Assembly (NCBI GenBank): GCA_007132345.1
Contig: SLOV01000044.1
Span: 1-51,481, forward strand
DNA from: Kiritimatiellia bacterium
GTDB lineage: Bacteria > Verrucomicrobiota > Kiritimatiellia > SLOV01
Length of the DNA stretch: 51,481 nt
Reading direction: 5' to 3'
Shown: positions 5,678 through 38,416 of the stretch, in pieces
How the letters are laid out: each line of letters starts with the position of its first letter
How positions within the stretch are numbered: position 1 is the stretch's first letter
Program-made: the position numbers and the translations under genes
The notes under the pieces: generated by a model
Told to the model about the DNA's origin: nothing
Database searches by the model: none
What the model saw: only the letters and a program-made list of their open reading frames with translations

Positions 5678-6933
5678 GGCTGTTCCTCCCGTTCCGCCCC
5701 GGCAGCCGCGTCCGAATCGGAGATGCGCAGGCTCATGCCTTCGACCGGCGTTCCGAGTGCGGAGACAATCAGGCGGTCGCCGGGTTGAAGGCCATCACGG
5801 ATCAGGGCAAACTCCGCGCCGGTCCAGACGGGCTCAACGCTGCGAATCCGCAGGGCATCCTCCTCGTCGGCCAGCCAGATCCGCCGATCGGCCCGGAGAG
5901 CCTCCCGCGGAATCCGGTAGACGTCGCGCACGGTGCGCCCTTCGATTGAGATCCGGACGAACTCTCCGATTAAGAGCGGCGCGGGGTCCTCTTCGGAATC
6001 GAGCAGGAGCGGATCGCGTACCTCCACCAGAATGCGGGCCAAGCGTCCGCCGGGTTCGAGGTCACCGAGCAGGCGCAACACGCTCCCATGGCGCGGTGCG
6101 CCCAGGGTGCCCTTGACGGTGACGTCCGAACCTTCGCTGCCGCCAGGAGTGGGAAGGGTGATCCAACGCAGGCGGTCCATCGGCACGGTGGCGCGCACCC
6201 AGAAGGTGTCGGTGGCACAGAGGGTGCCGAGCGGGGTCTGGCTGCGGGCCAGGTCGCCGACTTGCGCGTCGGCGCGCAGCACGACAACATCGAATGGGGC
6301 GCGCACCTGGGTCCGTTCGAGTGCCAGTTTGGCGGCGTCCAGGTCAGCTTTGGCGGTGGCCAGTGCGGCTTGCAGGTTGCGTAACTGGGGCTGGCGCGTG
6401 GCCAGTTCGCGCTCGAGTTCGCTGGCTTCCGAGTCGGCGCCGAGCAGTTCCCATTCGCGGCGGGCGACCGCTTGCTGTCCTTCTTCGAGCCGCAGATTGT
6501 TGCGGGCGCTTTCCACTCGCGCCTCCATGCGCACAACGTCGAGTTCGAAGTCGCGCGGGTCAATGGTCACGATGGTTTCGCCTTTTGATATGAACCCGCC
6601 TTCTACGAAATCCGGATGAATCGCGACAATCTCGCCCTGCACCTGCGCAAAGAGTTGAACCTCGCGGGCCGGCACCACCGTTCCCATGGCGGGCACATGG
6701 ATCGTTTCGTCGGTTGGCGTCAATGCCTGCACTTCGACCATGGGCACGAGCCTGGGCGGCGGGCGGCGTTCCGGGCGGGTGGTGAACCTGACCATGGCCC
6801 AGGAGCCGAGGAAAGAGAGGGCGAGCACCGCGATGCCGATAAGGGTGAGTACTCGACCCCGGCCTTTCGGTTCCGGCTTCGTGCCGTTGGGCGATGGGTG
6901 GAGGGGCTTTGCGGGTTTGCCAGGCTTGGTCAT
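5674..6933 (-). CDS. RND efflux periplasmic adaptor (MFP/HlyD family)
   Basis: 419 aa with an N-terminal TM anchor, a coiled-coil hairpin (LQAALATAKADLDAAKLALERTQVRAPFDG-like) and a beta-barrel C-terminus. It is translationally coupled to both neighbours. Confidence 0.9.
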   Translation of the reverse strand: MTKPGKPAKPLHPSPNGTKPEPKGRGRVLTLIGIAVLALSFLGSWAMVRFTTRPERRPPPRLVPMVEVQALTPTDETIHVPAMGTVVPAREVQLFAQVQGEIVAIHPDFVEGGFISKGETIVTIDPRDFELDVVRMEARVESARNNLRLEEGQQAVARREWELLGADSEASELERELATRQPQLRNLQAALATAKADLDAAKLALERTQVRAPFDVVVLRADAQVGDLARSQTPLGTLCATDTFWVRATVPMDRLRWITLPTPGGSEGSDVTVKGTLGAPRHGSVLRLLGDLEPGGRLARILVEVRDPLLLDSEEDPAPLLIGEFVRISIEGRTVRDVYRIPREALRADRRIWLADEEDALRIRSVEPVWTGAEFALIRDGLQPGDRLIVSALGTPVEGMSLRISDSDAAAGAEREEQP

Positions 6934-8384
6934 GAAGGGTCTCCGGAATCGGCGGGTTGCTCGGTGGCGAGTGGCGCTTGTGGCCAGGCGCCCCCCAGGG
7001 CGCGCAGCAGGGCAACGCGGGAGCGCAGTCGATCGGCGCGGGCCTGCACCAGGCCGCGTTCGGCGGCCTGCATGTTGAATTCGGCGGTGAGGACGGGGAG
7101 AAAATCGGTGAGTCCGTTGCGATACCGCTCCATGGCTTCCCGATAGGTGAGGCGGGAGGCATCCAGTTGTGCGGCCAGGGCGGCCTCGAACTCAGCCTGT
7201 TTCCGTTCCTGCACGAGAGCACCTTCCACCTCCAGGAAGGCCTGCAGGACGACGGCCCGGTATGCCGCCAGCCGCTCGTCCACGACGGCGCGTGCGCGAT
7301 CCGCTTCGGCGCGGCGGCGGCCAGCGTCGAAGACTGGTCCGGTAAGGGAGGCGGCGAGGGAGCCGATCCAGTCATCGAAGAGCGAAGAGAGTTGTTCGTC
7401 GCTATATTGGGCAAGTCCGGTGAGGCGAAGGGCGGGCAGCCGCTCGGCGCGCGCCGCGCTGAGGCGCCAGTCGGCGGAGGATAACCGGAGTTGCGCGGCG
7501 CGCACGTCGGGCCGTCGTTCCAAAAGTTCCGCGGGCAGGCCGGTGGGCGGCATGGGCGCTGACTCGGGCAGGAGGCGCAACACGGACTCCACGCTGCTGC
7601 GCGGCGGGCGGCCGGCGAGCACCGCAAGCTCGTGCAGGAGGGTTTGCTTGCGGGCTTCTTCGAGCGGGATCAACGCTTCGGTGCGCGCCACGGCTTCGCG
7701 CTGCTGGAAAACGTCGACGGCGCTGGCCCGCGCCTGGCGGAAGCGGAGTTCGGTGAGTTCGAGGACGCGGCGATTGCCCTCCAACTGGCGGGCCAGAACG
7801 TCCAGCGCCTGGCGCTGGGCGACCAGGGCGATCCAGCGGGTTGCGACCTCGGCGGCCACGGAAATGGCTGCGGCGTCGAGATCCTCGGCGCTGGCCTCGC
7901 GCTGCAGGGCGGCGGCCTCCGCGACGGAGCGCACCCGGCCCCACAGATCGAGTTCGTAGGCGCTGGCCAGGCCGATGCTGTAGGACTCGCGGGTTCGAAT
8001 CGATTCGGTGCCGGTCGCTGCGGGTAGCCGTTGCCGTGCCACGCCGGCGCCGCCTTCGAGGCGCAGATCGGGTAGGCGCGCGGCACCTTGCACCACGGCC
8101 TCGGCGCGCGCCTGTTCCAGCCGGGCGCGCGCCTGGGCAAGCGTCAGGTTTCCGTCGAGCGCCTGCTCGACCAGGGCGTCCAGCTCCGGTGCGCCGAGCA
8201 GTTCCCACCAACGGTCGGCTGGTGCTTCCGCCGCGGCGCCATCGGTAAAGGCATCGGGCACATCCGCCAGGTCGGAGTGTGATCGCGGAGCGGGTGCATA
8301 GATGGCGCAGGAGGCCTGAAGTATCAGCAGAGGAAGCAGGCAGAGCGCGCGGCGGCGGCCGGATCTACAGCAATCAAAATACAT
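6930..8384 (-). CDS. outer membrane efflux factor, NodT/TolC-family lipoprotein
   Basis: 484 aa with a lipobox-like LILQASC near the N-terminus and duplicated OEP repeats (DLWGRVR, RAALLRALGGAW-type C-terminus). Confidence 0.9.
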   Translation of the reverse strand: MYFDCCRSGRRRALCLLPLLILQASCAIYAPAPRSHSDLADVPDAFTDGAAAEAPADRWWELLGAPELDALVEQALDGNLTLAQARARLEQARAEAVVQGAARLPDLRLEGGAGVARQRLPAATGTESIRTRESYSIGLASAYELDLWGRVRSVAEAAALQREASAEDLDAAAISVAAEVATRWIALVAQRQALDVLARQLEGNRRVLELTELRFRQARASAVDVFQQREAVARTEALIPLEEARKQTLLHELAVLAGRPPRSSVESVLRLLPESAPMPPTGLPAELLERRPDVRAAQLRLSSADWRLSAARAERLPALRLTGLAQYSDEQLSSLFDDWIGSLAASLTGPVFDAGRRRAEADRARAVVDERLAAYRAVVLQAFLEVEGALVQERKQAEFEAALAAQLDASRLTYREAMERYRNGLTDFLPVLTAEFNMQAAERGLVQARADRLRSRVALLRALGGAWPQAPLATEQPADSGDPS

Positions 8385-10965: not shown

Positions 10966-11790
10966 TCAGGCGGGAATGGGCGGGTTTTCCGTGCACCCCG
11001 GCGGTGGCCGGACAGAGGAATCCCACACTTCGGCCACCCGATCGGGATAGGTCGGACAGACCCGAATGTGGGGATGGCCACTCTCGGCGAGTGCCTCGGA
11101 AATGGTGCGAACGGCCAGGATGGGGCAGTTACAGTCTTCGCTGAGATGCCCGAGGAAGACCTGCTGGAGCGCGGGGCTCGCGATTTCGGCCAGCATTTCG
11201 GCGGCCATCCGGTTGGAGAGATGCCCCTGTCGGCTGCGGATGCGTTGCTTCAAGGCCCACGGCCGCGGGGCTTCCTGCAGCAGGTGCTCGTCATGATTCG
11301 CCTCCACGACAAGGGCATGACACCCCCGCAACCGCTCACGGACCAGGGTCGTCGGGGTGCCGACGTCGAGGGCAATCCCGATTCGCCCCTCTTCGCAGTG
11401 CAGGGTGAACCCGACCGGCTCGTAGGCATCGTGAGGGATCGAAAACGGTTCAATGACAAGGTCCCCGATCGAAAACGGGGCGCCGGTGGTAAACACGCGC
11501 CAGGGCAGGCCTTGCAGACGGGGACGCCGGGAGAGGGCGTCGGCCGTGCCGCCATTCGCATAGACGGGAATCTGGTGGCGCTTGTAAAGAATGCCCACGC
11601 CGCCGGTGTGGTCATCGTGCTCGTGACTCACACAAATGGCGTCGATCGCCTCGATCGAGACCCCGATCTCTTCCAGGCGCCGCACTGTCTGCCGCCCGCT
11701 GATTCCCGCATCCACAAGAATACGGGTCTTCCCGGAAGCTACATAGATGCAGTTCCCGGCACTTCCACTTGCCAGAACACAGATTTTCAT
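10966..11790 (-). CDS. MBL-fold metallo-hydrolase
   Basis: ATG at 11788-11790 gives MKICVLASGSAGNCIYV... with the HxHxDH motif (SHEHDDHTGG). The 84 aa upstream in the track ORF are Arg/Cys-rich and unlikely to be coding. Confidence 0.85.
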   Translation of the reverse strand: MKICVLASGSAGNCIYVASGKTRILVDAGISGRQTVRRLEEIGVSIEAIDAICVSHEHDDHTGGVGILYKRHQIPVYANGGTADALSRRPRLQGLPWRVFTTGAPFSIGDLVIEPFSIPHDAYEPVGFTLHCEEGRIGIALDVGTPTTLVRERLRGCHALVVEANHDEHLLQEAPRPWALKQRIRSRQGHLSNRMAAEMLAEIASPALQQVFLGHLSEDCNCPILAVRTISEALAESGHPHIRVCPTYPDRVAEVWDSSVRPPPGCTENPPIPA

Positions 11791-12001
11791 GCGTCTTTCA
11801 AAAAAAATCGGCCCGCCCGGATTAATTGCTGGCCTACCCGGGCGGAAAATGGTATGAATCTTGCTAACGATCTCTTGTGAGCCGGTCCCGCGGGCGAGGC
11901 GGCGGCGCGGTTCACGCTTCGGGCAATGTACGAAGAAGAGGATGGCGCGGAAGGCCGCGCAACGCGAGGCAAAAGGGGCCCCGTGGGGGCTGTGGGACGT
12001 T

Positions 12002-13444
12002 ATGGCGGAACAATATTTAGCACAAACACAACAGCAACGCATGCAGATGGTGCTGGCTCCCCAGCTCCGTCAATCCCTGGAAATGCTCCAGGTCCCGATC
12101 ATGGAGTTGCAGACGCTGATCCAGCAGGAGATTCAGCAGAATCCCACGCTGGAAGAGCAGATCACCGATGCGAAGGACCGCATCGAAGTCGAACCCATTG
12201 CCGACGAGAAGGAAGACGAGAACCCGCTGAACAATGAATTCTCCGACTTCGAGGAGCAGTTCGAGGCGTTGGCAAAGATCGACGACGAGTGGCGCGAACA
12301 CTTCAGGCAGAGCACGACCAGCTACAGCTCCGACGATGCCGCCCGCCGCCAGTTCTTCATGGATTCCCTCTCGCAGCCGGAATCGTTGCAGGAGCATCTC
12401 CTGAACCAGCTCATGCTCGCGGAATTGCCGGAAGACGAGAAGAACATCGGAGAAATGCTCATCGGCAGCATCAACGAAGATGGCTATCTCACCCTCGACC
12501 TGAACGAGCTGACCGAAACCATGGGCTACGACCATGACCAGGTGGATCATGTGCTTCACCTGATCCGCGAGTTCGATCCCGTCGGGGTCGGGTCGAGCGA
12601 CCTGCGCGATTGCCTGCTCATTCAACTGGAGCGGCTCGGCAAAGGCGAGAGCCTCGCGTTCACCATCGTGGATCAACACCTGCGCGCCCTTGCGGCGCAC
12701 AAATACGCGGAGATCGCGCGCGCCCTGAAAGTCCCGCCAGAAGAGGTGCACCAGGCCGCCAGATTCATCGCCACGCTCGAACCGAAACCGGGCCGATCGT
12801 TCATCAGCTCGGCGCCGACCTACGTCCTGCCCGAGGTGGTGGTGAACAAAGAGAATGGCGCCTACAACATTCAGTTGGATAACGACCAGATCCCCCATCT
12901 CCGCATCAGCCGGCACTACCGCAACCTCATGCAGGACCCCAACACCTCCACGGAGGTGAAGGCCTACATTCGCGACAAGATTCGGGCCGGCGAGTTTCTG
13001 ATCAAGAGTATCGGGCAACGGCAGGACACCATCGGGCGCATTGCCCGCGAGATTGTGGCCGTGCAAACCGAGTTTATGGAGCAAGGCGTTTCGGCCCTGC
13101 GGCCGCTGACGATGGCCGAGATTGCCGATAAGCTCGGCATACACGAGACAACCGTCAGCCGGGCGATCGCCAACAAGTATATTGAAACACCGCGCGGCGT
13201 TTTTGAAATGAAGTACTTCTTCACGCCCGGCTTCAAATCGGCGGACGGGACGGAGGTCTCGAACAAGACCATCAAAGACGCGATCTCCCAATTGGTCGCG
13301 AACGAGGATCCGGCCGCTCCCCTTTCCGATCAGGCCATGGTGGTGCAACTGAAGGAGCGCGGCATCAAAGTCGCCCGGCGAACCATTGCGAAATACCGGG
13401 AGGAGCTGAAGATTCTGCCCTCCCACCTGCGCCGCTCGATGTAA
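12002..13444 (+). CDS. rpoN: RNA polymerase sigma-54 factor
   Basis: ATG at 12002 gives MAEQYLAQTQQQRMQMVLAPQLRQSLEMLQ... (region I). There is an acidic region II, and the C-terminal HTH and RpoN box (ARRTIAKYRE) are present. Confidence 0.93.
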   Translation: MAEQYLAQTQQQRMQMVLAPQLRQSLEMLQVPIMELQTLIQQEIQQNPTLEEQITDAKDRIEVEPIADEKEDENPLNNEFSDFEEQFEALAKIDDEWREHFRQSTTSYSSDDAARRQFFMDSLSQPESLQEHLLNQLMLAELPEDEKNIGEMLIGSINEDGYLTLDLNELTETMGYDHDQVDHVLHLIREFDPVGVGSSDLRDCLLIQLERLGKGESLAFTIVDQHLRALAAHKYAEIARALKVPPEEVHQAARFIATLEPKPGRSFISSAPTYVLPEVVVNKENGAYNIQLDNDQIPHLRISRHYRNLMQDPNTSTEVKAYIRDKIRAGEFLIKSIGQRQDTIGRIAREIVAVQTEFMEQGVSALRPLTMAEIADKLGIHETTVSRAIANKYIETPRGVFEMKYFFTPGFKSADGTEVSNKTIKDAISQLVANEDPAAPLSDQAMVVQLKERGIKVARRTIAKYREELKILPSHLRRSM

Positions 13445-13517
13445 CAACGATCCCGGCGGCGGGCGACCGGCCTTGCCTTCCGCTCGTATCGGAATCGGTG
13501 CGGTCGATGAGGCATGG

Positions 13518-16307
13518 ATGAACCCATCGGTCACAAGCCTGTCTTCGCCCGAGCGGAAGATCGCGCTTTTTATGAAGCTCTTCCGGGGCCGGACCGATGT
13601 CTACGCACAGCGCTTCGAAAGCCGTAGAACCGGCAGGAGCGGGTACAGCCCCGCATGCGCCAACGAGTGGGTTCGAGGGGTCTGCCAGAAGCCCAGAGTG
13701 AAGTGCGCCGAATGCCCGCACCAACAGTTCCTCGCGCTGTCCCCCGAGGTGATCCGACATCACCTCTCCGGCGTCGACGAGCATGGCCAGGCCTTCGTTG
13801 CGGGGCTATACCCCATGCTCCTGGACGAAACCTGCTGGTTCCTCGCCGTCGATTTCGACAAAGCGAGCTGGCGCGAAGACGTCGGCGCCGTCCGGGAGAC
13901 ATGCGCCACGCTCGGCCTCCCATGCGCCATCGAACGTTCGCGGTCCGGCAACGGCGCGCACCTCTGGTTTTTCTTCGAAACGGCCGTTCCCGCCGTCCTC
14001 GCCAGAAAGCTCGGCGCGCACCTGCTCACCCGGACCATGGAGCGCCGTCCCGAGATCGGGCTCGATTCGTACGATCGCTTCTTTCCCAATCAAGACACAC
14101 TGCCGAAAGGCGGCTTCGGGAACCTGATTGCACTGCCGCTGCAAAAGCAGGCAAGGGCCCGCGGAAACAGCGTGTTCGTGGACGACGACCTGGCCCCCTG
14201 GCCGGATCAGTGGGCCTTCCTCTCAAGCGTGGCGCGGCTCGACAAAGCGCGCATCGAAGAAATCGTCAAAAGGGCGGAGCGCGCCGGGCATGTGACTGGC
14301 GTGCGAATGGTCGTGGACGAGGAAGAGGCCGAATCGCCGTGGAAGGCAACGCCGTCGCGACAACCCCGCGTCACGCAGGTGCGGGGTCCGCTGCCGGACC
14401 GGATCGAGGTCGTTCTCGCAAACGAACTATACATTCCCAAGGCAAGCCTCACACCATCCCTGAGAAACCGGCTGCTGCGTCTGGCGGCCTTTCAGAACCC
14501 GGACTTCTACCGGGCACAAGCCATGCGCCTCCCCACGTTTGGCAAACCGCGGATCGTCGCCTGCGCCGAAGAGCATCAAGACCATATCGCCCTGCCCAGG
14601 GGTTGCCTGGACGACCTCACCTCACTCCTCGAATCCCTCGGCATCGACCAATCCGTTCGAGACGAACGCAGCAAAGGAAGACCGCTGGACGTGGAGTTTA
14701 CAGCACAGCTTTATCCGGAACAGATGGCCGCGGCATCCGCGCTGCTGGCACACGACACCGGTGTGTTGGCCGCAACGACCGCGTTTGGCAAGACCGTGCT
14801 GGCGGCATGGCTCATTGCGAAGCGAGGCACAAACACCCTGGTTCTGGTTCATCGCCGTCAACTGCTCGAACAGTGGGTTGAGCGACTCTCCTCTTTCCTC
14901 GGTCTCCCGCACGCCCAGATCGGGCGAATTGGCGGGGGCCGACGAAAGGTCTCCGGGCTGGTCGACGTTGCACTGATTCAGAGCCTCGTTCGGAAAGGCG
15001 TCGTGGACGATCTCGTCGGCGACTACGGACATCTTGTGGTCGACGAGTGTCATCATTTGCCCGCGCCCAGTTTCGAGCAGGTGGCCCGGCGTGCGAAGGC
15101 GAGATATCTCCTCGGTCTTTCGGCCACGGTGCCCCGCAAGGATGGCCACCACCCCATCATCTTCATGCAGTGCGGGCCGGTGCGGTATCGAGTACATGCC
15201 AAACGGCAAGCGGCAGCGCGGCCCTTCGCACACAGTGTATTCGTCAGGCCGACCTCCTTCCGACACGAAGAACAGGAAACCGAGGACGCCCGAACCCGGT
15301 TTCAGGCCTTGTACCGGGCGCTGGCGGCCGACGAAGAACGCAATCGCCAGATCGTCGACGATGCCGTTGCCTCCGTGCGCGAAGGCCGCAAGCCGGTGGT
15401 GCTGACCGAGCGCCGAGAACACCTTGAACGCCTGGCCGCGGATCTCTCGCCGCTGGTGCGACACCTGATTGTTCTGATGGGGGGAATGGGGAAGAAGCCC
15501 CTGGCCGCGGCCATGGAGCAACTCGCCCGGATTCCAGAAGACGAAGATCGTGTGATCCTTGCGACAGGGCGGTTTCTTGGAGAGGGATTCGATGACGCAA
15601 GGCTCGATACGCTGTTCCTGACCATGCCCGTTTCCTGGCGCGGGACCATTGCTCAATATGTCGGCCGGCTGCATCGCAGACACGCGTGCAAGCGCGAGGT
15701 CCGTGTTTACGACTACGCCGACCTGAATGTCCCCATGCTGGCCCGCATGTTCGACCGGCGCTGCAAAGGATACGAGGCCATTGGCTATACCCTTCTCCTG
15801 CCCGCCAGCGCCGTACCGGGCTGGCCGCCGGAAGTTCCGTTGCCTGTCGATCCTGAGTGGAAGCGCGACTACGCAGCCAGTGTGCAGCGCTTAATCCGCG
15901 ACGGCGTCGATCCGCCGCTCGGCAATCTCTTCCTGCACGCCGCCCGAACGTCCTCACCGGTTGCGACCGGCAGCGCCCGCAGTGCATCCGAAGCGTTCCT
16001 GTTCCGACGCCTCGAAACGTTGCCCGCGACCAGAGGCAGATTCCGCATGAACGTGAAGCTGCCGATCCAGTTCGATCAACGCGGGCACATGGAGGTCGAT
16101 TTCCTCTGCCCGCAAGCCCGCCTTGTGATCGAGGTAGACGGACCGCACCATCTTGCCGATGCCGCGGCGTACCGGCGTGATCGCTACAAGGACGCCCTTC
16201 TGCAGGAGCACGGCTACTTCATCTTGCGCTTCCTTGCCGAAGATATCGGGAAGCACCTCAATCGTGTCCTCGACACCATTCTAAGGGCACTCGCGCATCG
16301 AGGCTGA
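13518..16307 (+). CDS. fusion protein: AEP (PrimPol-like) primase domain + SF2 DExH helicase + DUF559/Vsr-like endonuclease domain
   Basis: ATG 13518 is preceded by GAGG (13509-13512); the track ORF starts at TTG 13473. AEP motifs: FLAVDFD (DxD around 13848-13859), SGNGAH (13944-13961) and GGFGNLIALPL. A 4-Cys cluster C-x8-C-x6-C-x2-C is also present. Helicase motifs: I TAFGKT (14778-14795), II DECH (15042-15053), III SAT and VI QYVGRLHR. C-terminus: EVDFLCP...LVIEVDGPHH...ILRF (IEVDG at 16128-16142), typical of DUF559. Confidence 0.9.
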   Translation: MNPSVTSLSSPERKIALFMKLFRGRTDVYAQRFESRRTGRSGYSPACANEWVRGVCQKPRVKCAECPHQQFLALSPEVIRHHLSGVDEHGQAFVAGLYPMLLDETCWFLAVDFDKASWREDVGAVRETCATLGLPCAIERSRSGNGAHLWFFFETAVPAVLARKLGAHLLTRTMERRPEIGLDSYDRFFPNQDTLPKGGFGNLIALPLQKQARARGNSVFVDDDLAPWPDQWAFLSSVARLDKARIEEIVKRAERAGHVTGVRMVVDEEEAESPWKATPSRQPRVTQVRGPLPDRIEVVLANELYIPKASLTPSLRNRLLRLAAFQNPDFYRAQAMRLPTFGKPRIVACAEEHQDHIALPRGCLDDLTSLLESLGIDQSVRDERSKGRPLDVEFTAQLYPEQMAAASALLAHDTGVLAATTAFGKTVLAAWLIAKRGTNTLVLVHRRQLLEQWVERLSSFLGLPHAQIGRIGGGRRKVSGLVDVALIQSLVRKGVVDDLVGDYGHLVVDECHHLPAPSFEQVARRAKARYLLGLSATVPRKDGHHPIIFMQCGPVRYRVHAKRQAAARPFAHSVFVRPTSFRHEEQETEDARTRFQALYRALAADEERNRQIVDDAVASVREGRKPVVLTERREHLERLAADLSPLVRHLIVLMGGMGKKPLAAAMEQLARIPEDEDRVILATGRFLGEGFDDARLDTLFLTMPVSWRGTIAQYVGRLHRRHACKREVRVYDYADLNVPMLARMFDRRCKGYEAIGYTLLLPASAVPGWPPEVPLPVDPEWKRDYAASVQRLIRDGVDPPLGNLFLHAARTSSPVATGSARSASEAFLFRRLETLPATRGRFRMNVKLPIQFDQRGHMEVDFLCPQARLVIEVDGPHHLADAAAYRRDRYKDALLQEHGYFILRFLAEDIGKHLNRVLDTILRALAHRG

Positions 16308-16338
16308 ATCGCGACACTTCGTACTTGGCGGGAAAGTC

Positions 16339-16358
16339 CTGGCAGCCCTTCAGGTTGC
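16339..16358. repeat. REP-like hairpin, family CTGGCAGCC-cttca-GG(C/T)TGC
   Basis: The hairpin lies 32 nt after the stop of the primase-helicase gene. Near-identical copies occur at 41575-41594 and 41679-41698. Confidence 0.6.
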
Positions 16359-16424
16359 GGCCCACCTCGAAGGCAAAGGCCGCCGATTCTTGACGATTCG
16401 GTTAGGCACCCCTACCATTCTGCT

Positions 16425-16664
16425 ATGAATGTAACCTTGCCTGCACACCTAGAAGGCCGTCTCTCTCCGGAATCGGCAGCGCTTCATTTGGCCCTTGGCC
16501 TCTTTGTGGCAGAGGAAGCCACTCTGGGACAGGCAGCCGAAGTCGCAGGGCTTTCACAAGGCGCTTTCCTGCGCGAGCTCGGCCAGCGTAAGATCCCATT
16601 GCATTACGGTACCAAAGAACTAACTCAGGATTTGCAAGCAGTTGAAGAACTCTCCAGGCGATGA
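16425..16664 (+). CDS. UPF0175-family antitoxin-like protein
   Basis: 79 aa containing LALGLFVAEEATLGQAAEVAGLSQGAFLRELGQRKIPLHYG, the pattern of UPF0175 partners of DUF3368 PIN-like toxins. ATGA overlaps the next gene. Confidence 0.75.
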   Translation: MNVTLPAHLEGRLSPESAALHLALGLFVAEEATLGQAAEVAGLSQGAFLRELGQRKIPLHYGTKELTQDLQAVEELSRR

Positions 16665-16930
16665 TTGTCGTTTCGGACACCTCTCCCATATCAGCCCTGC
16701 TCACCGTGGGGGCCGAACAGATCCTTATTCAACTCGACGAACGTAAGGGCCGCATGCTTGCCATGCAGGAAGGGGTTCCGGTGATCGGGTTGCTCGGCGT
16801 TGTACTGCTCGCACGCCGTAAGGGGTTGATCCCATCCGCCCGCGACTTACTACATCGCCTTGCGGACGAGGCTGGCGCATATCTTGCCACAGACTTGGTA
16901 GAATCTGCGCTCAAGACTGTCGGCGAGTAG
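16661..16930 (+). CDS. DUF3368 (PIN-like) toxin homologue, apparently internally shortened
   Basis: The 89-aa product has the family N-terminus (MIVVSDTSPISALLTVG) joined almost directly to the family C-terminal part (LDERKGRMLA...GLLGVVLLARRKGLI...). Full-length members, as I remember them, are about 150 aa. Confidence 0.6.
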   Translation: MIVVSDTSPISALLTVGAEQILIQLDERKGRMLAMQEGVPVIGLLGVVLLARRKGLIPSARDLLHRLADEAGAYLATDLVESALKTVGE

Positions 16931-16996
16931 ACTCTTGTAGAATGCGAAGTCCGCCGCAAGCCTGCAAAGACCTTTCCATTCCACCCCACTCTGCCC

Positions 16997-17091
16997 TTGA
17001 CGCTCAGGCCTTTGGTTGGCATGATTTCTGAGTTGCTTCTTTGGGGGGGGGCGCCTGATCTGCGACGTCCCTTCCTTGGTTTTTTTGGGGG
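16997..17091 (+). promoter_or_regulatory. putative promoter/leader with homopolymer tracts upstream of the 17100 gene
   Basis: TTGACG (16997-17002), a 17-nt spacer, then CATGAT (17020-17025). G9 lies at 17043-17051. T7 (17080-17086) abuts G5 (17087-17091), which is the SD-like element 8 nt before ATG 17100. Confidence 0.25.
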
Positions 17092-17099
17092 AATAGACC

Positions 17100-18473
17100 A
17101 TGAGAAATCGGGCATCGTTTCATCGGCTGGCATCTTTTCGCTTTGTGCTCGTTTGCGCGTTGGCGTCTCTTGCCTCGTTGGCTGTTCCACCGACTCGGGC
17201 CCAGATCATCTTCAACGCCCTTGTGAACGAGCCAGGCGGAGCCGTGAATCGTCTATTCGAAATGCAGGGTGGCGTGGTGACGCCCGTCCTCACCGGATTG
17301 ACCGCCGATAACTTTCCGGGCCTCTCTCCCGACGGGCGCTTCATCACGATCTCTTCTCCCGATCCCCTCCAGCCATTCGAGCCCAGCCACGACCTCTTCG
17401 TGCATGACCGGCTCACCGGCCAGACGCGCAAGGTCGTTGACTACGCTACCTTTGAGACCAATGGAAACTTTGTCACCTCCACCCCCCTCTTCAGTCGACT
17501 CTCGCCCGACAACCAGTGGATCGCACTGAAAACGCTCGTGAACACCTCCACCGCACAGGGGCTCAGCAGCACACCGATGCTCACCGTGAATCGGGCCAGC
17601 GATGGATTTCAGGTGTCGCTTGTGGAGATCGGACAGGGCAACGCCATCGATCATTTCCGATCCGAGTATGTGGGCATCGCCTGGCATCCGGGTGGAACCT
17701 TCTTTGTGGCGCCGGCCTATGTGCCAATCCTCACACAAACGGGCCAGAGCACGATCGGGGTTGGACTCGCCTCCTATGCCTTCAATGCCGGCACCTTACA
17801 GTGGCAGCGGATCGGCCAACTCACGCAGCCCCGCATCTTCGATGCTGTCTTTCCGTCGGTCATCGAAACCCACATCCTCCCCGCCATCTCCCCGAACGGG
17901 CAACGGATTGCCTTCTTCGAACTCACCTGGCCTGACGCTTTGCTGCAGGGGCCGGTGCAGGCGCGGCTGGCGGTCATGAACCTCGACGGTTCCAACGGCG
18001 CGTATCTGGCGACGTTCAACCCCGGCTTCTTCCCCGGCGGGCTGACCTGGTCGCAGGACGGCGCCCAACTGATCTTCTCGATCGCATTCCAGATGCAGGT
18101 GCCGGGTGTCGGCTTTCAGCCGGGCGGCGATCCGGCGACGGCCGAGATTCGGGCCGTGGACAGCGTAGTGGGCGGCGCCTGGACCCAACTACCGGGGGTG
18201 AATGCGGGCTTCTTTCCGAGCAGCCCCATGTTCCTCTCGGGCGGCGTCGATCTCGGCACCATCCCCCTCGATCTGCAGCGCCTGCCGGATGGCACGTTTC
18301 TGCTGACGGCCGCCGGACTGGATCCCGCGCTGACGTATCAATTGCAGAGCACCACCACCATGCGTCAACCCTTCGGGAGCAGCCAGGGTTTCACCGGGCA
18401 ACAGATCATGAACGGTATCAGCATCACGCCGACGCCCTCCGCCTGGTTCTTCCGCCTGCAGCAGGCGCCGTAA
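17100..18473 (+). CDS. secreted PD40/TolB-like beta-propeller repeat protein, function unknown
   Basis: 457 aa with a signal peptide (FVLVCALASLASLAVPPTRA|Q). Repeated LSPDGRFI / LSPDNQWIA / ISPNGQRIAF / WSQDGAQLIF blades are present. The C-terminal about 90-aa beta-sandwich-like domain ends in FFRLQQAP. Confidence 0.8.
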   Translation: MRNRASFHRLASFRFVLVCALASLASLAVPPTRAQIIFNALVNEPGGAVNRLFEMQGGVVTPVLTGLTADNFPGLSPDGRFITISSPDPLQPFEPSHDLFVHDRLTGQTRKVVDYATFETNGNFVTSTPLFSRLSPDNQWIALKTLVNTSTAQGLSSTPMLTVNRASDGFQVSLVEIGQGNAIDHFRSEYVGIAWHPGGTFFVAPAYVPILTQTGQSTIGVGLASYAFNAGTLQWQRIGQLTQPRIFDAVFPSVIETHILPAISPNGQRIAFFELTWPDALLQGPVQARLAVMNLDGSNGAYLATFNPGFFPGGLTWSQDGAQLIFSIAFQMQVPGVGFQPGGDPATAEIRAVDSVVGGAWTQLPGVNAGFFPSSPMFLSGGVDLGTIPLDLQRLPDGTFLLTAAGLDPALTYQLQSTTTMRQPFGSSQGFTGQQIMNGISITPTPSAWFFRLQQAP

Positions 18474-18530
18474 TGGGCTGGCTTCTTGAGGACCGCCGTC
18501 ATGCATGGTTCGTGATGAAGGCTTTCACCC

Positions 18531-19688
18531 TCACGATCCGGCTGGCCGGACGGCGGTTTCGATATCGTGGGCCACTCGCTCGGCAGCACGGGCGTAGGCG
18601 CCCGGCGGTCCCAGTTTCTCCGCAATCGATGCCAGCCCGTCGATCGTACGGTGGCGTTCCTCGGTATCGCCGAGCAACGGCAGCATGGCCGCAGCCAGCG
18701 ATTGCGGTGTCGCCTGGTCCTGAATCCGCTCGGGACATAACTCGCGGCCGGCGATGAGATTCACCATGCCGATATAGGGCACCCGCACCAGCCGCTTGCC
18801 CAGCAGATACATGAAGGGGCTGGTGCGATAGGTGACAACCATCGGACAGCGCAGGAGCGCAGCCTCGACGGTGGCGGTGCCGGAGGCGACGAAGGCCGCG
18901 TCGGCCTGCCGCAAAATCTGACGGGTCTGCGCCGTTTGCACGGCCCAGTTCGTGGGACCCAGTGTGCCTTGGGCCAGCTTCGCTTCGATGTGCCGCGCCG
19001 TCTCCGCATTGGGCGCGGCGATCCGGAAGGATACGGCTGGGTGCAGACCCTCGATGCGTGCGGCCGCCTGCCAGAGAACGGGGAGGATGCGATCGATTTC
19101 CTGGCGGCGGCTGCCGGGCAACAAGGCGATTCTGGGCGCGCCCTGCCACGATAGGTCCGCTGCCGGTGCCGCGAGCACGGCCTCGGCTTCGTCGACGAGG
19201 GGATGCCCCACATAGTTCACCTTCAGGCGGGTGCCGGCGAACACCTCGGGCTCGAAAGGAAAGATGACCAGCAGCCGGTCGATGACTTCCGCCATCACCG
19301 GAATCCGGCCCGGCCGCGAGGCCCAGACCTGGGGACTGATGAAATAGATGACGCGGATGCCGCGTCGTTTGAGTTCGCGGGCCAGGCGCAAGTTGAAGCC
19401 GCCATAATCGACCAGCAGTGCCACGCTGGGCTTGCGTTTGTCGACCTCGCGCAACAGGTCCCGGAACGCGCGGCGGAAGAAAGGGAGACGGCGCAGCGCC
19501 TCCGGCAGGCCAAACACGGCCATGTCGTTCACGTCGTAGAGCAGGTCCGCGCCCTGCTCGCGCAGGGCCTCGCCGCCAATCCCGAACACATCAAGGCCGG
19601 GCCACAAGGGGCGCAACGCGCGGAGCAGACCCGCGGCATGCATATCGCCGGAAATCTCGCCCGCCACCACGAGCAGGGGCGTGCTCAC
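18531..19688 (-). CDS. lpxB: lipid-A-disaccharide synthase
   Basis: LpxB signature VVAGEISGDMHAAGLLRAL...GIGG...VDYGGFNLRLA...YFISPQVWASRPGR. The likely start is GTG 19686-19688, overlapping the upstream TGA (GTGA). The track ORF extends 35 Arg/Pro-rich codons further to 19793. Confidence 0.85.
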   Translation of the reverse strand: MSTPLLVVAGEISGDMHAAGLLRALRPLWPGLDVFGIGGEALREQGADLLYDVNDMAVFGLPEALRRLPFFRRAFRDLLREVDKRKPSVALLVDYGGFNLRLARELKRRGIRVIYFISPQVWASRPGRIPVMAEVIDRLLVIFPFEPEVFAGTRLKVNYVGHPLVDEAEAVLAAPAADLSWQGAPRIALLPGSRRQEIDRILPVLWQAAARIEGLHPAVSFRIAAPNAETARHIEAKLAQGTLGPTNWAVQTAQTRQILRQADAAFVASGTATVEAALLRCPMVVTYRTSPFMYLLGKRLVRVPYIGMVNLIAGRELCPERIQDQATPQSLAAAMLPLLGDTEERHRTIDGLASIAEKLGPPGAYARAAERVAHDIETAVRPAGS

Positions 19689-20641
19689 GCGGTATTTCCT
19701 TCGCGTATCCGGCTGGTGATCTCCACCGCCAGCTTGAGGGCCTCCGCGGCATGGTCGCCGCTCACGACCGGGTCGCCTCGATGGCGTACACACTCCGCGA
19801 AGGCCGCCAGTTCGATGGCCAGCGGTTCGCCTTTCTCGATCGGCACCTGGACACGCTCGATGCCGGTCGCCGCCTTCCGATAGAGTTCTCCACTCTGGCT
19901 CTGGTAGTCGAGCGAAAGGTAGGCATCGGGCAGAAACACGCGGACCTTCCGCATGCGCTCTGGACTGATGCGGCTGGCCGTGACATTGGCTACGCAGCCG
20001 TTCTCGAAATGGAGCCGCACGTTGGCGATGTCTTCGCTCGGGCTCAAGACGGAGACCCCGACGGCATGGAACGATTTCACGGGCGCCCGTACCAGGTGCA
20101 TGATCACTTCGAGGTCGTGGATCATCAGGTCGAGCACGACGCTCACCTCCGTGCCGCGCGGGTGCAACCCGTCGCGGGGCGGCGGGTAGGGTGCAAGGCG
20201 GTGGGCCTCGATGAAGCGGAGATTGTGCGCCGCCGCTTCGAGAAAGCTGAGCACGGGGTTGAAGCGTTCGATGTGGCCGACCTGCAGAATCAGATCGCGT
20301 TCTTTGGCCATGGCGACGAGGTCCATGGCTTCCTGCGTGGTGGAGGCGATCGGCTTTTCGATGAGGAGATGCACGCCGGCGGCCAGAAGCTGTGCACCAA
20401 CCTCGCGGTGCAGGTGCGTCGGCACGACCAGGCTGGCGGCTTCCACCTGCTCCGCCAGTTCGTCGATGGAGGCGAAGACGCGGGTTCCATGCTTCGCCGC
20501 GATCTCCGTGGCGCGCTCGGTGTCGATGTCATAGATGCCGACCAGGTTCGTCTGCGGCAGTTCGCTGTAGATGCGGGCGTGGGCCTGGCCCAGGCTACCG
20601 ACACCCACAACCCCGACGCGAAGGGCGTTCGCTGCGTTCAT
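19685..20641 (-). CDS. Gfo/Idh/MocA-family NAD-dependent oxidoreductase (GnnA-like position in a lipid A cluster)
   Basis: 318 aa with an N-terminal Rossmann fold (LRVGVVGVGSLGQAHARIY), the EKP motif (HLLIEKP) and a C-terminal alpha/beta domain. It is coupled to lpxI and lpxB by 4-nt overlaps. Confidence 0.88.
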   Translation of the reverse strand: MNAANALRVGVVGVGSLGQAHARIYSELPQTNLVGIYDIDTERATEIAAKHGTRVFASIDELAEQVEAASLVVPTHLHREVGAQLLAAGVHLLIEKPIASTTQEAMDLVAMAKERDLILQVGHIERFNPVLSFLEAAAHNLRFIEAHRLAPYPPPRDGLHPRGTEVSVVLDLMIHDLEVIMHLVRAPVKSFHAVGVSVLSPSEDIANVRLHFENGCVANVTASRISPERMRKVRVFLPDAYLSLDYQSQSGELYRKAATGIERVQVPIEKGEPLAIELAAFAECVRHRGDPVVSGDHAAEALKLAVEITSRIREGNTA

Positions 20642-21468
20642 TCGTTCTCCTCGCTTCCCGTAAAGGCCGTAAATGCCATTTGCAGGCGGTTCGCTTCTTC
20701 GATGAGTTTCTCGCGCTCCAGCAGAATGGTGCGTCCAGCCTCGACCGCCAGTGCGGAGACACGGGCTTTGCGCAGGTAGCGGAAAGTCTTGGGGCCGACC
20801 ACGGGAATATCGAAGCGCATGTCGTGTCCGCGTTTCGCCATCTTGACGACCACGCTGCCCGCGCCCCCCAGTTTGCCGGCCCGGCGAATGGCCGCGTCGG
20901 TGCCTTCAAAGGCCTCGACGGCCAGCACCGCGCCTTGCTTGATCACCACCGTCTGGCCAATATCGAGACCGCTGGTGGCGTGCGCCACACGCAGCCCGAG
21001 TTCGATGTCCGCCTGTTCCTGCTCGGTGGGGGCGCGTCGACTCAACAGACCGGGCTCCGGCATGGAGGTTTCCATGAACAGATGGGCGGGACGCAGCGTG
21101 ACGCCGACGCCTTCGAGCCGCGCGGCGATCGCGCCGAAGATGGTGTGCGCGTTACGCTCCTTCATCTGGGCGAGCATCTCGATAGTGGCCTTATCCGGGC
21201 GCAATCGGAAGAGGTTGGAGGGCGTGATCTGCCCCGCCATGACAGCGTCCTTCACCCCGCTGGCGCGAAACGCGTCGAGCATTGCCTGTAACTGGCCCAC
21301 GCGCAGCCACACCACCTCGTCCACCAACTGCGCAATGGACGGATCGGTCTCTTTGCGGAACGCCACGGCGAAAAGGCGCGAAACACCCTGGGCCCTGGCG
21401 GACGCGGCCAGTTGCAGGGGATATGCTCCTTTTCCGGCAATGATCCCCAGTGAGGCTGGCGTATCCAT
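20638..21468 (-). CDS. lpxI: UDP-2,3-diacylglucosamine pyrophosphatase LpxI (DUF1009 family)
   Basis: 276 aa containing LGIIAGKGAYPLQLA...GQTVVIKQGAVLAVEAFEGTDAAIRRAG...VVVKMAKRGHDMRFDIPVVG, characteristic of LpxI. Confidence 0.85.
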   Translation of the reverse strand: MDTPASLGIIAGKGAYPLQLAASARAQGVSRLFAVAFRKETDPSIAQLVDEVVWLRVGQLQAMLDAFRASGVKDAVMAGQITPSNLFRLRPDKATIEMLAQMKERNAHTIFGAIAARLEGVGVTLRPAHLFMETSMPEPGLLSRRAPTEQEQADIELGLRVAHATSGLDIGQTVVIKQGAVLAVEAFEGTDAAIRRAGKLGGAGSVVVKMAKRGHDMRFDIPVVGPKTFRYLRKARVSALAVEAGRTILLEREKLIEEANRLQMAFTAFTGSEENE

Positions 21469-21470
21469 GG

Positions 21471-21752
21471 CTAGAGAATCTGCGTGTGCAAGTCCATGAC
21501 GACGTAACGTGGGTCGGAACGTAACGCATCCGACAGATTAGAGAGGCGTTTATCGATCACATCGCGCGTCGCGGCGACGGTGACGAAGGCGAAATCGGCA
21601 TACTTCCATTCGTCCTGGCGGCCCACCTCGGCCACGCTGACGTTCATGCGGTGGAGAATGCGATCCTTCAGGCTGCGAATGACCGAGCGTTTGTCCTTCA
21701 GCGAGCGCGCCTCGGGAATACTGATACTCAATTCCAACAGACCAATCACCAT
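21471..21752 (-). CDS. DUF503 (YlxP-like) protein
   Basis: 93 aa containing MVIGLLELSISIPEARSLKDKRSVIRSLKDRI...ADFAFVTVA, the canonical DUF503 pattern. Confidence 0.85.
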   Translation of the reverse strand: MVIGLLELSISIPEARSLKDKRSVIRSLKDRILHRMNVSVAEVGRQDEWKYADFAFVTVAATRDVIDKRLSNLSDALRSDPRYVVMDLHTQIL

Positions 21753-21860
21753 GCCGCCGTATCTCCTGCAGCCGGAAAGCCCGCACGCGGTGGGCCGGAC
21801 GCCTCTGTTCCGTGCCGTGCGGCCGCGGCCGCAGCGATCGCAAGCCTGTTCCGGATTCGC

Positions 21861-22871
21861 TTAGCTTGCGCGTCCCCGTTTCAGCCGCCGCTCGATGCGC
21901 TCCAGATCGCGGCGTCGTTCTTCGCCCTTCTCGCCCTGCAAGCGCCGCAACTGCACGCAGACGGCCGCACCGGAGCCGACACCGAGGATTTTGGCGGTTT
22001 CCTCCTGCGTCAATCCGGCATGGCGCGTGAGCAGCGCGGCCACGACGGGTTTAATCGAGTCGCGCCTTCTCCGTCGCGCCAGATCTTTGATGGTAATGCC
22101 AAAATAGGCGGTCGCCGCGTCGAGAACCTCTTTCTTGCGCTTCCGCTGCTCGGCCTTCCGCTTCCGTTCGGTGGTGCCTTTATGGAGATCTGCCGCCTGT
22201 TTGGTCACGCCGCGGCGCAGACCGGCCACAAATTTGGGCGAGCCGATCCCCAGCGGCGCGCGGTACATGGCCTCTGCCAGTTCCGCATCGGGGTGGGCAA
22301 TCGCCTGATCCACATAAGCGGCATACTTGCGGCGGCGATCCTGCACCCGCGCCTTCATGAGGCGCAGGACCGGTTCGATCGCCACGGGCGCCGGTCCCCG
22401 GTGGGCGCTGGTGTAATCCTTGTAGCTGCTCCAGCGGTAACGCTTCACTTCCGCGCGGCGCTGGTTCGTGGGCTTCTTCAGCCACTTCTTCTCCCACACC
22501 GGCGCCAGGTGAATCCAGCGGCTCAGGGCAAGCACGTACGGGCCGGGTTCGACGACCCGCGATTTGTAGCGCCCATGCGTCACCGGTCCCGTCCAGCCGT
22601 AAGCGTGCTGGAGGTGATTGGCATACGCCGTCAGCAGCCCCGCCATGAAGCGGCTGACGTTGCCTTTCGGCGTTTCCACGAGAAGCTTCACCTGCTTCGG
22701 CAGCAGCACATACGCGTAGAGGTTCACCTCTCGCAGCGCCGCCTGATCGGTAAGTTTCTCCAGGAACCGGAGGTAATCGGACTCTTTGCGAAACAGCGTC
22801 TTTCCTTCGGACCCGCTGAAGGTCACGTAGAAAATGCCGCCTTCCAATTGAATGCGTAGAGGTCTGGCCAT
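21861..22871 (-). CDS. Y1 (IS200/RAYT-like) transposase homologue with substituted catalytic motifs, fused to a DnaA-domain-IV-like HTH
   Basis: ATG 22869-22871 gives a 336-aa product. LYAYVLLPKQVKLLVETP aligns with the family AYxLMPNHVHLL motif (H,H replaced by Q,K). SRWIHLAPV aligns with RYIHLNPV (Tyr replaced by Trp), and RYRWSSY is retained. The C-terminus AYFGITIKDLARRRRRDSIKPVVAALLTRHAGLTQEETAKILGV resembles DnaA domain IV. Confidence 0.8.
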   Translation of the reverse strand: MARPLRIQLEGGIFYVTFSGSEGKTLFRKESDYLRFLEKLTDQAALREVNLYAYVLLPKQVKLLVETPKGNVSRFMAGLLTAYANHLQHAYGWTGPVTHGRYKSRVVEPGPYVLALSRWIHLAPVWEKKWLKKPTNQRRAEVKRYRWSSYKDYTSAHRGPAPVAIEPVLRLMKARVQDRRRKYAAYVDQAIAHPDAELAEAMYRAPLGIGSPKFVAGLRRGVTKQAADLHKGTTERKRKAEQRKRKKEVLDAATAYFGITIKDLARRRRRDSIKPVVAALLTRHAGLTQEETAKILGVGSGAAVCVQLRRLQGEKGEERRRDLERIERRLKRGRAS

Positions 22872-26810: not shown

Positions 26811-26894
26811 AACTGGACAGTATCGCGTACAAGGTCGCCGCCTGCCACCCGTTTTCTTCATTTTCTGATCCCGCTGGATCAAGCTCTGCCGCAA

Positions 26895-27028: not shown

Positions 27029-27049
27029 GCGGAAGATTCGGAAGAAGAC

Positions 27050-38402: not shown

Positions 38403-38416
38403 CGCATCAATTCCTC

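Follow-up and report, generated by a model that had tools for sequence, protein, structure and literature searches.

What is the gene that lies directly behind rpoN in one contig of a Kiritimatiellia bacterium (SLOV01000044.1, assembly GCA_007132345.1), and what might its product do? The contig, analysed here as a single stretch of 51,481 nucleotides (nt) and called the window below, carries at positions 13518-16307 of the plus strand a stop-free reading frame whose translation is 929 amino acids (aa) long. A preliminary description had taken this product for an orphan fusion of an archaeo-eukaryotic primase (AEP), a superfamily 2 (SF2) helicase and a DUF559 nuclease, and for a candidate single-gene conflict system that might be transcribed together with the sigma-54 gene. 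It was right about the domains, about the gene's standing alone and about the domain label 'TOTE' (TPR, OB, TBP, Effector), but wrong in the word 'orphan' and in the connection with rpoN. Judged from its sequence, the protein belongs to the family of IEE, the insertion-sequence excision enhancer of Escherichia coli, in a branch that carries a nuclease tail, and it probably acts on DNA intermediates of mobile elements. Its modules are arranged along the gene as follows:

13518-16307, plus strand: coding sequence of the 929-aa AEP Prim-Pol / SF2 helicase / DUF559 protein (translation, Pfam)
13557-14261, plus strand: AEP Prim-Pol catalytic domain, aa 14-248 (PF22548, E 1.1e-99)
13656-13715, plus strand: cluster of four cysteines, C47-x8-C56-x6-C63-x2-C66, inserted in the AEP domain and putatively zinc-binding (sequence, conservation)
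14385-14672, plus strand: small alpha/beta domain between AEP and helicase, about aa 290-385 (AlphaFold model)
14706-15797, plus strand: SF2 helicase/translocase core, aa 397-760 (ResIII, DEAD, PDB, Foldseek)
15798-15977, plus strand: conserved linker from helicase to nuclease, aa 761-820, not in IEE (conservation)
15978-16304, plus strand: DUF559/Vsr-like PD-(D/E)xK endonuclease domain, aa 821-929 (PF04480)

Compared by BLASTP with IEE of E. coli O157:H7 (the 786-aa protein of strain EDL933, its gene taken from a PLSDB record), the window protein aligned collinearly, with 47% identity over 755 aa (residues 6-760 of the query against 42-778 of IEE). The AEP residues D112, D114, H148 and D186 fall on IEE D142, D144, H178 and D216, and the helicase residue K425 on IEE K451, which are the catalytic residues as numbered for the 786-aa protein (Calvo 2023, PMC9943667; Chandler 2023, 10.1101/2023.06.07.543989). 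The two proteins also share a Pfam model, AEP-TOTE (PF22548), which gives the window protein 333 bits (cutoff 27) and IEE 329 bits (E 1.7e-98); IEE matches ResIII as well. From the collinear identity, the aligned catalytic residues and the common Pfam model it follows, as far as sequence can tell, that the window protein is an IEE-family ('Z1568-like' AEP) Prim-Pol/helicase of the nuclease-tailed branch. IEE is reported to have as its nearest structures the CRISPR-associated Prim-Pol (CAPP, 7NQE) in the AEP domain and UvsW (2OCA) or XPB in the helicase (10.1101/2023.06.07.543989), and the window protein shares them, its own matches being to CAPP and to UvsW/XPB. Nor is it short of closer kin: at least 8000 relatives emerged from a protein search, and its three-domain architecture recurs in every one of the best 120 (67-76% identity).

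Is the reading frame correctly drawn, and is it maintained? Both questions can be put to L001, a second strain of this organism that is 99.55% identical across 13.2 kb. An upstream in-frame TTG at 13473 reads CTG in that strain, so that the ATG at 13518 is the likelier start, and the 11 nucleotide differences within the coding sequence are all synonymous, leaving an identical protein, which argues for purifying selection on the gene. Its GC content (about 0.62-0.64) is that of the rest of the window. In an alignment of 54 homologues, on which all statements of residue conservation below are based, the catalytic residues of the AEP, helicase and nuclease modules are invariant. An AlphaFold2 model built from the same alignment is of moderate quality (mean predicted local distance difference test score, pLDDT, 69.8; predicted template modelling score, pTM, 0.50) and shows an AEP core, an alpha/beta domain, two RecA-like lobes and a compact C-terminal domain (aa 823-929). 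Pfam agrees with the earlier description that three enzymatic modules share one polypeptide (AEP-TOTE, ResIII and DUF559), and every motif listed there can be found in the translation where it had been placed.

In the AEP domain, FLAVDFD holds D112 and D114, SGNGAH holds H148, and GGFGNLIALPL is also present; with D186 these aspartates and the histidine form an invariant catalytic set, which, together with the Pfam match, sustains the proposal of an AEP/PrimPol core. Invariance extends to three of the clustered cysteines (C56, C63 and C66), C47 being kept in at least 90% of the homologues, in a loop that is poorly modelled (pLDDT <50 at residues 44-65). Foldseek searches of the PDB led, for this domain, to CAPP of Marinitoga (7nqd/7nqe, with target-normalised TM scores of 0.75-0.79), and a sequence-profile search of the PDB to the same protein (7nqd, E 2.5e-13). 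The profile searches that had been suggested as a check have thus come out in favour of both the AEP domain and the nuclease (Pfam), with structure prediction and fold search also supporting the AEP domain. Against NCBIfam PrimPol_Msp (NF040561) the protein scores 89 bits, below the equivalog level (cutoff 200), and it matches the 'PrimPol, Cas-associated' hidden Markov model (HMM) of PADLOC at 1e-94. A connection with CRISPR was considered on the strength of that last match and rejected, the window having yielded no CRISPR array-like repeats and its scanned open reading frames (ORFs) no Cas families.

Between the AEP domain and the motor lies the small alpha/beta domain, a stretch that is conserved in IEE and modelled with a pLDDT mostly of 81-92 (44-62 around residues 321-350). 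In the predicted structure it occupies the position of the N-terminal domain of XPB (Foldseek alignments to XPB cover about 480-550 columns), and its function is at most presumptive. The SF2 module that follows had been called complete, and so it appears: Pfam finds ResIII at aa 397-540 (E 3.4e-20) and DEAD (E 3.4e-10), and the characteristic motifs are present as TAFGKT (motif I, with G424, K425 and T426 invariant), DECH (motif II, D509-H512 at nt 15042-15053, with D509, E510, C511 and H512 all invariant), SAT at 535-537 (motif III, A536 and T537 invariant) followed by RKD at 540-542, and QYVGRLHR at 713-720 (motif VI, with Q713, Y714, G716, R717 and R720 invariant). In XPB, the RED motif stands at the position of this R-K-D. 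Might the motor then be an XPB? The best PDB profile match was indeed to XPBII (6p4f, E 1.6e-20), and Foldseek gave T4 UvsW together with archaeal and eukaryotic XPB (E 5e-18 to 1e-16). Identity as an XPB/Ssl2 DNA-repair helicase was nevertheless rejected, as the NCBIfam scores fall far below the equivalog cutoffs (NF045503, XPB, E 1.9e-19, 69.6 bits against 610; TIGR00603, 15 bits against 329); XPB is the nearest fold of the motor, yet a different family.

The linker beyond the motor contains many invariant residues (P762...W781...R791) and has no Pfam match; model confidence is low across this region (pLDDT <50 for residues 734-819). It leads into the C-terminal module that had been recognized earlier as a DUF559/Vsr-like PD-(D/E)xK nuclease, an identification upheld by the Pfam match (PF04480, aa 856-925, E 7.8e-13) and by the core EVDF...IEVDG (nt 16128-16142), in and around which D861, E872, D874, G875 and H878 are invariant. 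The PDB entry 3hrl, a DUF559 'endonuclease-like protein', was matched at E 2e-8 with the profile and at 3e-7 with the C-terminal tail alone, the alignment covering the core vDF...vEaDG..H.

IEE ends after its helicase, and the window protein does not. Does this place it outside the family? The question can be approached through the 1.84 billion representatives of clusters at 50% identity that HMMER searched exhaustively with the AEP domain (aa 1-330) as query; 8200 matched at E <=1e-3, 1585 of them at E <=1e-30, the best 150 being AEP-helicase proteins only. We surveyed the architecture of 43 proteins (42 near-full-length representatives from this search and the window protein). AEP-TOTE was present in all 43 and ResIII in 42; twenty stop within 28 aa of the helicase end, as IEE does, and the other 23 have tails of about 135-180 aa, in which Pfam recognized PLDc_2 ten times and DUF559 three times, the remainder (about 140-150 aa) being assigned to no family. 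Going on beyond the helicase is therefore a subfamily trait that excludes no protein from the family. Since 20 of the 43 have no tail and the recognized tails are either PLDc_2 or DUF559, the C-terminal nuclease is an optional part, for which the family draws on at least two unrelated folds. Swappable nucleases of this kind are reportedly regarded by Aravind and colleagues as typical of conflict-system effectors.

How might such a protein be employed? For IEE of E. coli O157:H7 the source is said to be Kusumoto 2011. This enhancer (ECs1305; Calvo 2023, PMC9943667; Chandler 2023, 10.1101/2023.06.07.543989) raises the excision of IS629 and other elements of the IS3, IS1 and IS30 insertion-sequence (IS) families, all of which transpose by copy-out-paste-in, and the excision that it promotes requires an active transposase (PMC9943667; 10.1101/2023.06.07.543989). 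Its AEP domain polymerizes DNA in an error-prone manner, favours Mn2+ and tolerates primer/template dislocation; its SF2 domain is a DNA-dependent ATPase that stabilizes DNA binding and does no unwinding; and the protein joins 3' overhangs with at least 4 nt of homology by microhomology-mediated end joining (MMEJ), for which both domains are needed (PMC9943667). As the core and all the catalytic residues are conserved between the two, the window protein probably shares the core chemistry of IEE, and the DUF559 domain most plausibly adds strand cleavage in cis. We therefore favour, on balance, an IEE-family enzyme whose targets are DNA intermediates of mobile elements and which brings its own endonuclease. 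In such a scheme the SF2 module would bind duplex DNA beside a 3' end, serving as a DNA-dependent ATPase and clamp rather than as a classical unwinding helicase; the AEP domain would then carry out Mn2+-favoured, error-prone, dislocation-tolerant synthesis and MMEJ, by which intermediates of transposition by copy-out-paste-in, or of similar mobile-DNA replication, would be aborted or reversed; and the fused endonuclease would cleave strands in cis, either making or trimming ends for joining by the Prim-Pol or cutting the offending DNA.

Several considerations weigh against this proposal. IS excision is known only for the E. coli IEE, which is 47% identical and has no tail (PMC9943667), and even for that protein the physiological role is debated, the models of Calvo et al. 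(PMC9943667) and Chandler et al. (10.1101/2023.06.07.543989) being different. We found no published experimental work on any nuclease-tailed member, and DUF559 is not mentioned in the IEE papers examined (PMC9943667). There is no transposase or IS among the scanned ORFs of the window, and transposases are not enriched among 150 ORFs immediately adjacent to homologues. The full-length structural model is, at the pLDDT and pTM given above, only moderate. Finally, the 'conflict system' label of Pfam and NCBI would fit a role against phages or plasmids equally well.

The same biochemistry could also be seen as that of an accessory enzyme of DNA repair or damage tolerance, in which an XPB-like motor and the nuclease would open and incise the DNA, as in archaeal XPB-Bax1, and the Prim-Pol would fill gaps and join ends, as LigD or PrimPol do. 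Gap filling, strand displacement and MMEJ are all performed by IEE in vitro (PMC9943667), the helicase is nearest to XPB, the sequence is strongly conserved under purifying selection, and the gene lies between housekeeping genes in several genomes. We think this improbable, however, for a gene that is patchily and horizontally distributed, that is absent from the rpoN-mfd locus of the closest relative, that occurs on conjugative plasmids and in integrative elements, whose nuclease is optional and swappable, and at whose homologous loci no linked Ku, ligase or uvr gene was found.

That distribution deserves closer attention. A scan of one genome per species found 327 relatives, 80 loci of which were kept; these stand at 61-76% identity across phyla and come mostly from Verrucomicrobiota, Kiritimatiellia/Victivallales, Vicinamibacteria and Ca. 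Accumulibacter. Within Kiritimatiellia, where RpoN homologues place the host of the window, RpoN proteins are only about 62-65% identical, so that the Prim-Pol protein is at least as similar between phyla as RpoN is within a class, which argues for horizontal spread. Untailed relatives (about 58% identity) occur on alphaproteobacterial conjugative plasmids, among them pDSHI01 of Dinoroseobacter and pNK6d of Bradyrhizobium. On pDSHI01 of D. shibae (L091, 5813-7861 and 13881-16391, both on the minus strand) the untailed homologue is flanked by genes annotated as strawberry-notch-type helicases and by three consecutive tyrosine recombinase genes, next to a 682-aa ORF that has no PLSDB annotation. 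About 35 predicted viral contigs in IMG/VR carry full-length relatives, only one of them with a DUF559 tail.

Such occurrences recall the classical AEP-helicase fusions that serve as replicases of mobile elements, and one might ask whether the window protein serves an integrated plasmid or prophage as its replicative primase-helicase. Two-domain relatives on plasmids, and others on predicted viral contigs, would accord with this, but we consider it very improbable: the motor is of SF2 type (XPB/UvsW-like) rather than of SF3, D5 or DnaB type, the plasmids that carry relatives have replicons of their own, the GC content of the gene matches that of its host, no integrase, Rep or partition gene was seen among the scanned ORFs near the gene, and 50,697 phage records contained no full-length relative, so that the earlier judgement that this is no phage replicase seems sound.

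Does the gene, then, travel with a partner? Eighty-six non-redundant loci were compared (six from exact-protein look-ups and the 80 of the one-genome-per-species scan), their flanking ORFs within 6 kb being clustered by all-against-all BLASTP. No flanking family was present in more than five of the 86, and those that were shared are generic families, so that this comparison, like the preliminary description, points to a stand-alone gene with no partner normally at its side; it is an accessory gene that has spread horizontally and stands alone. The ORFs right next to the homologues, 150 in all, matched 158 Pfam families, the commonest being AbiEii (6 of 150), PIN (5), ParE (4), AAA_14/DUF4143 (4) and phage integrase (3). 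Toxins of toxin-antitoxin systems are thus the commonest immediate neighbours, none exceeding 6 of 150, in a census that is approximate and had no background control, its simple codon-usage gene finder having missed some small genes. Homologue loci often lie in accessory regions rich in toxin-antitoxin genes and sometimes between housekeeping genes. By BLASTN, flanking DNA (500-600 nt on each side) was similar among close relatives only, with no repeats linking the upstream and downstream sides and no shared ends. In several unrelated genomes (L002-L005, L011 and L058) an AbiEi/AbiEii pair is the immediate upstream neighbour of the homologue, sharing its strand and separated from it by about 110 nt, an adjacency that may reflect co-transfer or chance within defence islands.

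These neighbours bear on the chief rival of the reading preferred here, namely that the protein is a stand-alone anti-phage or anti-plasmid effector, in which a restriction-like SF2 translocase-nuclease cuts invading DNA while foreign replication intermediates are sensed or marked by the AEP domain, or serve it for DNA synthesis. The NCBI and Pfam naming invites this idea. The RefSeq label named in the preliminary description is real, some homologues of the same architecture bearing the NCBI name 'TOTE conflict system archaeo-eukaryotic primase domain-containing protein'. TOTE systems are, however, multi-gene systems that include proteins with a TPR and a cold-shock domain and proteins with a TBP domain (10.1101/2025.09.15.676423), their description being credited there to Aravind, Iyer and Burroughs 2022. 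The window protein does have a nuclease suited to the effector's place (DUF559, with D861, E872, D874 and H878 conserved), but no TPR-OB/cold-shock gene was found among the scanned window neighbours or among the 25 families listed for the 150 flanking ORFs, and no TBP-domain gene in the same scans, though a distant fused TBP/OB fold may conceivably lie in the low-confidence linker (aa 734-819). With neither gene and no conserved partner, the window gene is a stand-alone unit and not a full TOTE system; it shares the domain family only. Of the earlier conflict-system idea, the TOTE AEP label therefore stands, while the components that define such a system are missing from these scans.

A defence effector is a possibility that we take seriously, though we hold it to be the less probable one. 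The interchangeable PLD and DUF559 nucleases would be typical of conflict-system effectors, AbiEii, PIN, ParE, AAA_14/DUF4143 and integrase are the commonest neighbours, a toxin-antitoxin pair follows the window gene, the distribution is patchy and horizontal, and PADLOC relates the protein weakly to type IV restriction enzymes, to PbeA and to DpdF. Yet no PADLOC system model was matched, only the generic 'Cas-associated PrimPol' HMM; the TOTE-defining TPR-OB and TBP components were not found; the neighbour enrichment was obtained with no background control; the sole experimentally studied member, IEE, targets insertion sequences and not phages; and 61-76% identity between phyla would be unusually conservative for an effector facing phages. 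The two readings do not exclude one another, both amounting to the policing of mobile DNA, and a defence effector is compatible with an IEE-like enzyme acting on mobile-element intermediates.

It remains to ask what is to be made of rpoN. The features around the gene are these:

11942-13444, plus strand: rpoN (sigma-54), a neighbour only (Pfam Sigma54 AID/CBD/DBD; stop codon at 13442-13444)
13445-13517, plus strand: spacer of 73 nt between rpoN and the Prim-Pol gene, with GAGG 5 nt before the ATG (sequence)
16425-16664, plus strand: UPF0175 gene of a toxin-antitoxin pair (Pfam)
16661-16930, plus strand: DUF3368 (PIN-like) gene of the same pair (Pfam)

The 73-nt spacer with its GAGG ribosome-binding site and its want of a convincing terminator was correctly described at the outset: a scan found in it no plus-strand terminator (nor any sigma-70-like promoter), and its fold is no more stable than those of shuffled sequences (z = 0.12). 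Read-through from rpoN into the Prim-Pol gene may therefore be physically possible, and it had been suggested that the gene fills the slot in which hpf or ptsN often follows rpoN. A sigma-54-linked gene in an rpoN operon would accord with the common strand, the short gap and the absence of a predicted terminator, but synteny speaks plainly against it. The closest relative, whose RpoN is 88% identical, has in succession a DnaJ-like gene, DUF5989, an MBL-fold gene, rpoN, a convergent 334-aa gene 16 nt downstream, and mfd, with no Prim-Pol gene in the rpoN-mfd locus; a relative at 70% RpoN identity likewise has a convergent gene right after rpoN, the gaps among the closest relatives being 16-25 nt and the Prim-Pol gene lacking there. 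There is accordingly no such slot in the nearest relatives, and their convergent gene indicates that the adjacency seen in the window is lineage-specific and not an operon by design. In the window, moaA, a DnaJ-like gene and an MBL-fold hydrolase gene lie upstream of rpoN on the minus strand, and beyond the toxin-antitoxin pair come a PD40-repeat protein, then lpxB, a GFO oxidoreductase and lpxI (minus strand), and then mfd. The orthologue of the 334-aa gene is a 321-aa gene at 21861-22826 (minus strand; 82% identical), so placed that an 8.4-kb block (13445-21860, in comparison with L094 8330-10926) parts rpoN from its ancestral neighbour. The block contains the Prim-Pol gene, the toxin-antitoxin pair and the genes for the PD40 protein, lpxB, the GFO oxidoreductase, lpxI and DUF503. 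A clean insertion of the Prim-Pol gene alone behind rpoN was considered and rejected, as the block also contains lpxB and lpxI.

The displacement of the ancestral neighbour by this block puts a synteny breakpoint exactly at the junction of rpoN and the Prim-Pol gene, and the juxtaposition is a lineage-specific rearrangement with no ancestral operon behind it. Moreover, at the 86 loci rpoN is not a recurrent immediate neighbour of homologues, the Sigma54 families being absent among those common to at least two of the 150 flanking ORFs, and the spacer evolves fast (its 73 nt differ by 3 substitutions from one strain to the other, which is about 41 per kb, against 2-7 differences per kb in the flanking genes; the spacers 16308-16424 and 16931-17099 show none and one, respectively). 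The sigma-54-linked reading is close to refuted, and together with those of a repair enzyme and a replicase it is much less likely than either an IEE-like enzyme or a defence effector. On the other side of the gene, the toxin-antitoxin module announced in the preliminary description is there (UPF0175 and DUF3368 by Pfam), a neighbour typical of accessory islands and no conserved partner; the REP-like hairpin reported with it is not supported, the downstream spacer folding no better than shuffled sequence (z = 0.04).

Before leaving the window, we draw attention to some further features. The only insertion or deletion between the window and L001 across the 13.2 kb is a 1-nt change of length in a poly-G tract (about 17040-17053) some 50 nt upstream of the PD40 gene (17100-18473); it may mark a phase-variable tract, or an artefact of assembly or sequencing. 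A 34-bp tandem repeat (4.1 copies, 88% matches, 26888-27026) lies within a Phd/YefM antitoxin ORF (26556-27098, minus strand), whose Pfam domain spans aa 97-169 only, so that the repeat falls in an N-terminal extension that is perhaps upstream regulatory DNA. A stretch of GC content 0.565-0.597 at about 42-47 kb holds an AAA_14/DUF4143 ATPase gene (42296-43501, minus strand); a gene of this kind also stands directly upstream of the Prim-Pol homologue in L008. The MBL-fold hydrolase gene divergent from rpoN (10966-12042, minus strand) is weakly similar to the anti-Pycsar Apyc1 family, and the MBL-fold/rpoN arrangement, with a 54-aa DUF5989 gene, is kept in all three related contigs examined (L094, L096 and L097). 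Two RND efflux operons, each with AcrB-like, HlyD-like and OEP genes, occupy 2510-8384 and 34237-39970 on the minus strand.

The window gene is thus an ordinary member of its family, and its position behind rpoN is without evident meaning. The family itself is already catalogued and very large, and its prototype, IEE, has been studied by genetics and biochemistry; the nuclease-tailed branch is the only part with real potential for novelty. What does emerge is that the 'TOTE conflict system AEP domain' of Pfam and NCBI and the E. coli IEE are one and the same protein family, the label and the IEE work having been left unconnected in the literature examined. More than half of the representatives surveyed (23 of 43) differ from IEE in being tailed, and a PLD or Vsr-like nuclease was detected in 13 of those 23 tails. 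The tailed forms abound in Verrucomicrobiota, Kiritimatiellia, Acidobacteriota and Ca. Accumulibacter, and if they do act on insertion sequences or other mobile DNA, this would be a widespread genome-policing activity. It is tempting, if rather speculative, to go further and to picture the tailed branches (DUF559 and PLD) as single-polypeptide 'cut-and-patch' immune enzymes, in which the SF2/AEP core would recognize replication or transposition intermediates, the fused nuclease would cleave them, and microhomology-guided synthesis would reseal the host DNA. Such enzymes, which we would think unlikely rather than likely, would be distinct from restriction and from nuclease-less IEE, and might conceivably provide a missing link between IEE and TOTE.

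How does the window protein compare with other systems that unite some of these activities? With TOTE systems it has in common the AEP domain family, the NCBI name and a nuclease 'effector' domain, whereas the adjacent TPR-OB and TBP genes of TOTE are lacking both at the window gene and at the 86 homologous loci. CAPP of Marinitoga (7NQD, 7NQE, 7NQF and 7P9J) provides the closest solved structure to its AEP domain, but is CRISPR-associated and has other fusion partners, while no array or Cas was found in the window. Archaeal XPB-Bax1 and the XPB/Ssl2 of TFIIH have the SF2 core nearest to its motor, and XPB-Bax1 couples a nuclease to a motor in a similar way; there, however, the nuclease is Bax1, whereas that of the window protein is fused, of Vsr/DUF559 type, and has an AEP domain attached. 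A PD-(D/E)xK/Vsr or PLD nuclease placed C-terminally to an SF2 ATPase is met again in type III Res, SauUSI, type IV mREases and ARMADA YprA, the last with a Vsr nuclease at its C terminus. SauUSI (7clg) was among the PDB profile and Foldseek matches, and PADLOC gave weak matches, each over one domain, to PbeA (6e-10), mREase_IV (3.7e-7) and DpdF (6e-7). These helicase-nuclease enzymes of restriction and defence have no N-terminal Prim-Pol, and the window gene for its part has no methyltransferase or partner genes; the known single-gene helicase-nuclease systems of PADLOC were considered as an identity for it and rejected, no system-specific HMM or model having been matched. Bacterial LigD (AEP polymerase, phosphoesterase and ligase) resembles it in joining an AEP domain to an end-processing nuclease in one polypeptide, but the window protein has no ligase domain and no linked Ku gene, and the AEP domain of LigD belongs to the AEP-proper clade, that of the window protein to the Prim-Pol 'Z1568-like' family (PMC9943667). 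The closest comparison is with IEE itself, which has the same collinear AEP Prim-Pol and SF2 helicase, the same four-cysteine cluster and the same Pfam models, and is likewise encoded by a stand-alone, horizontally spread gene. IEE differs in an N-terminal extension of about 35 aa and in its residence in an integrative element of the SpLE1 type, whereas the window gene lies in a Kiritimatiellia-like chromosome and its product continues for some 170 further residues (a tail of 169 aa) with the DUF559/Vsr-like endonuclease.

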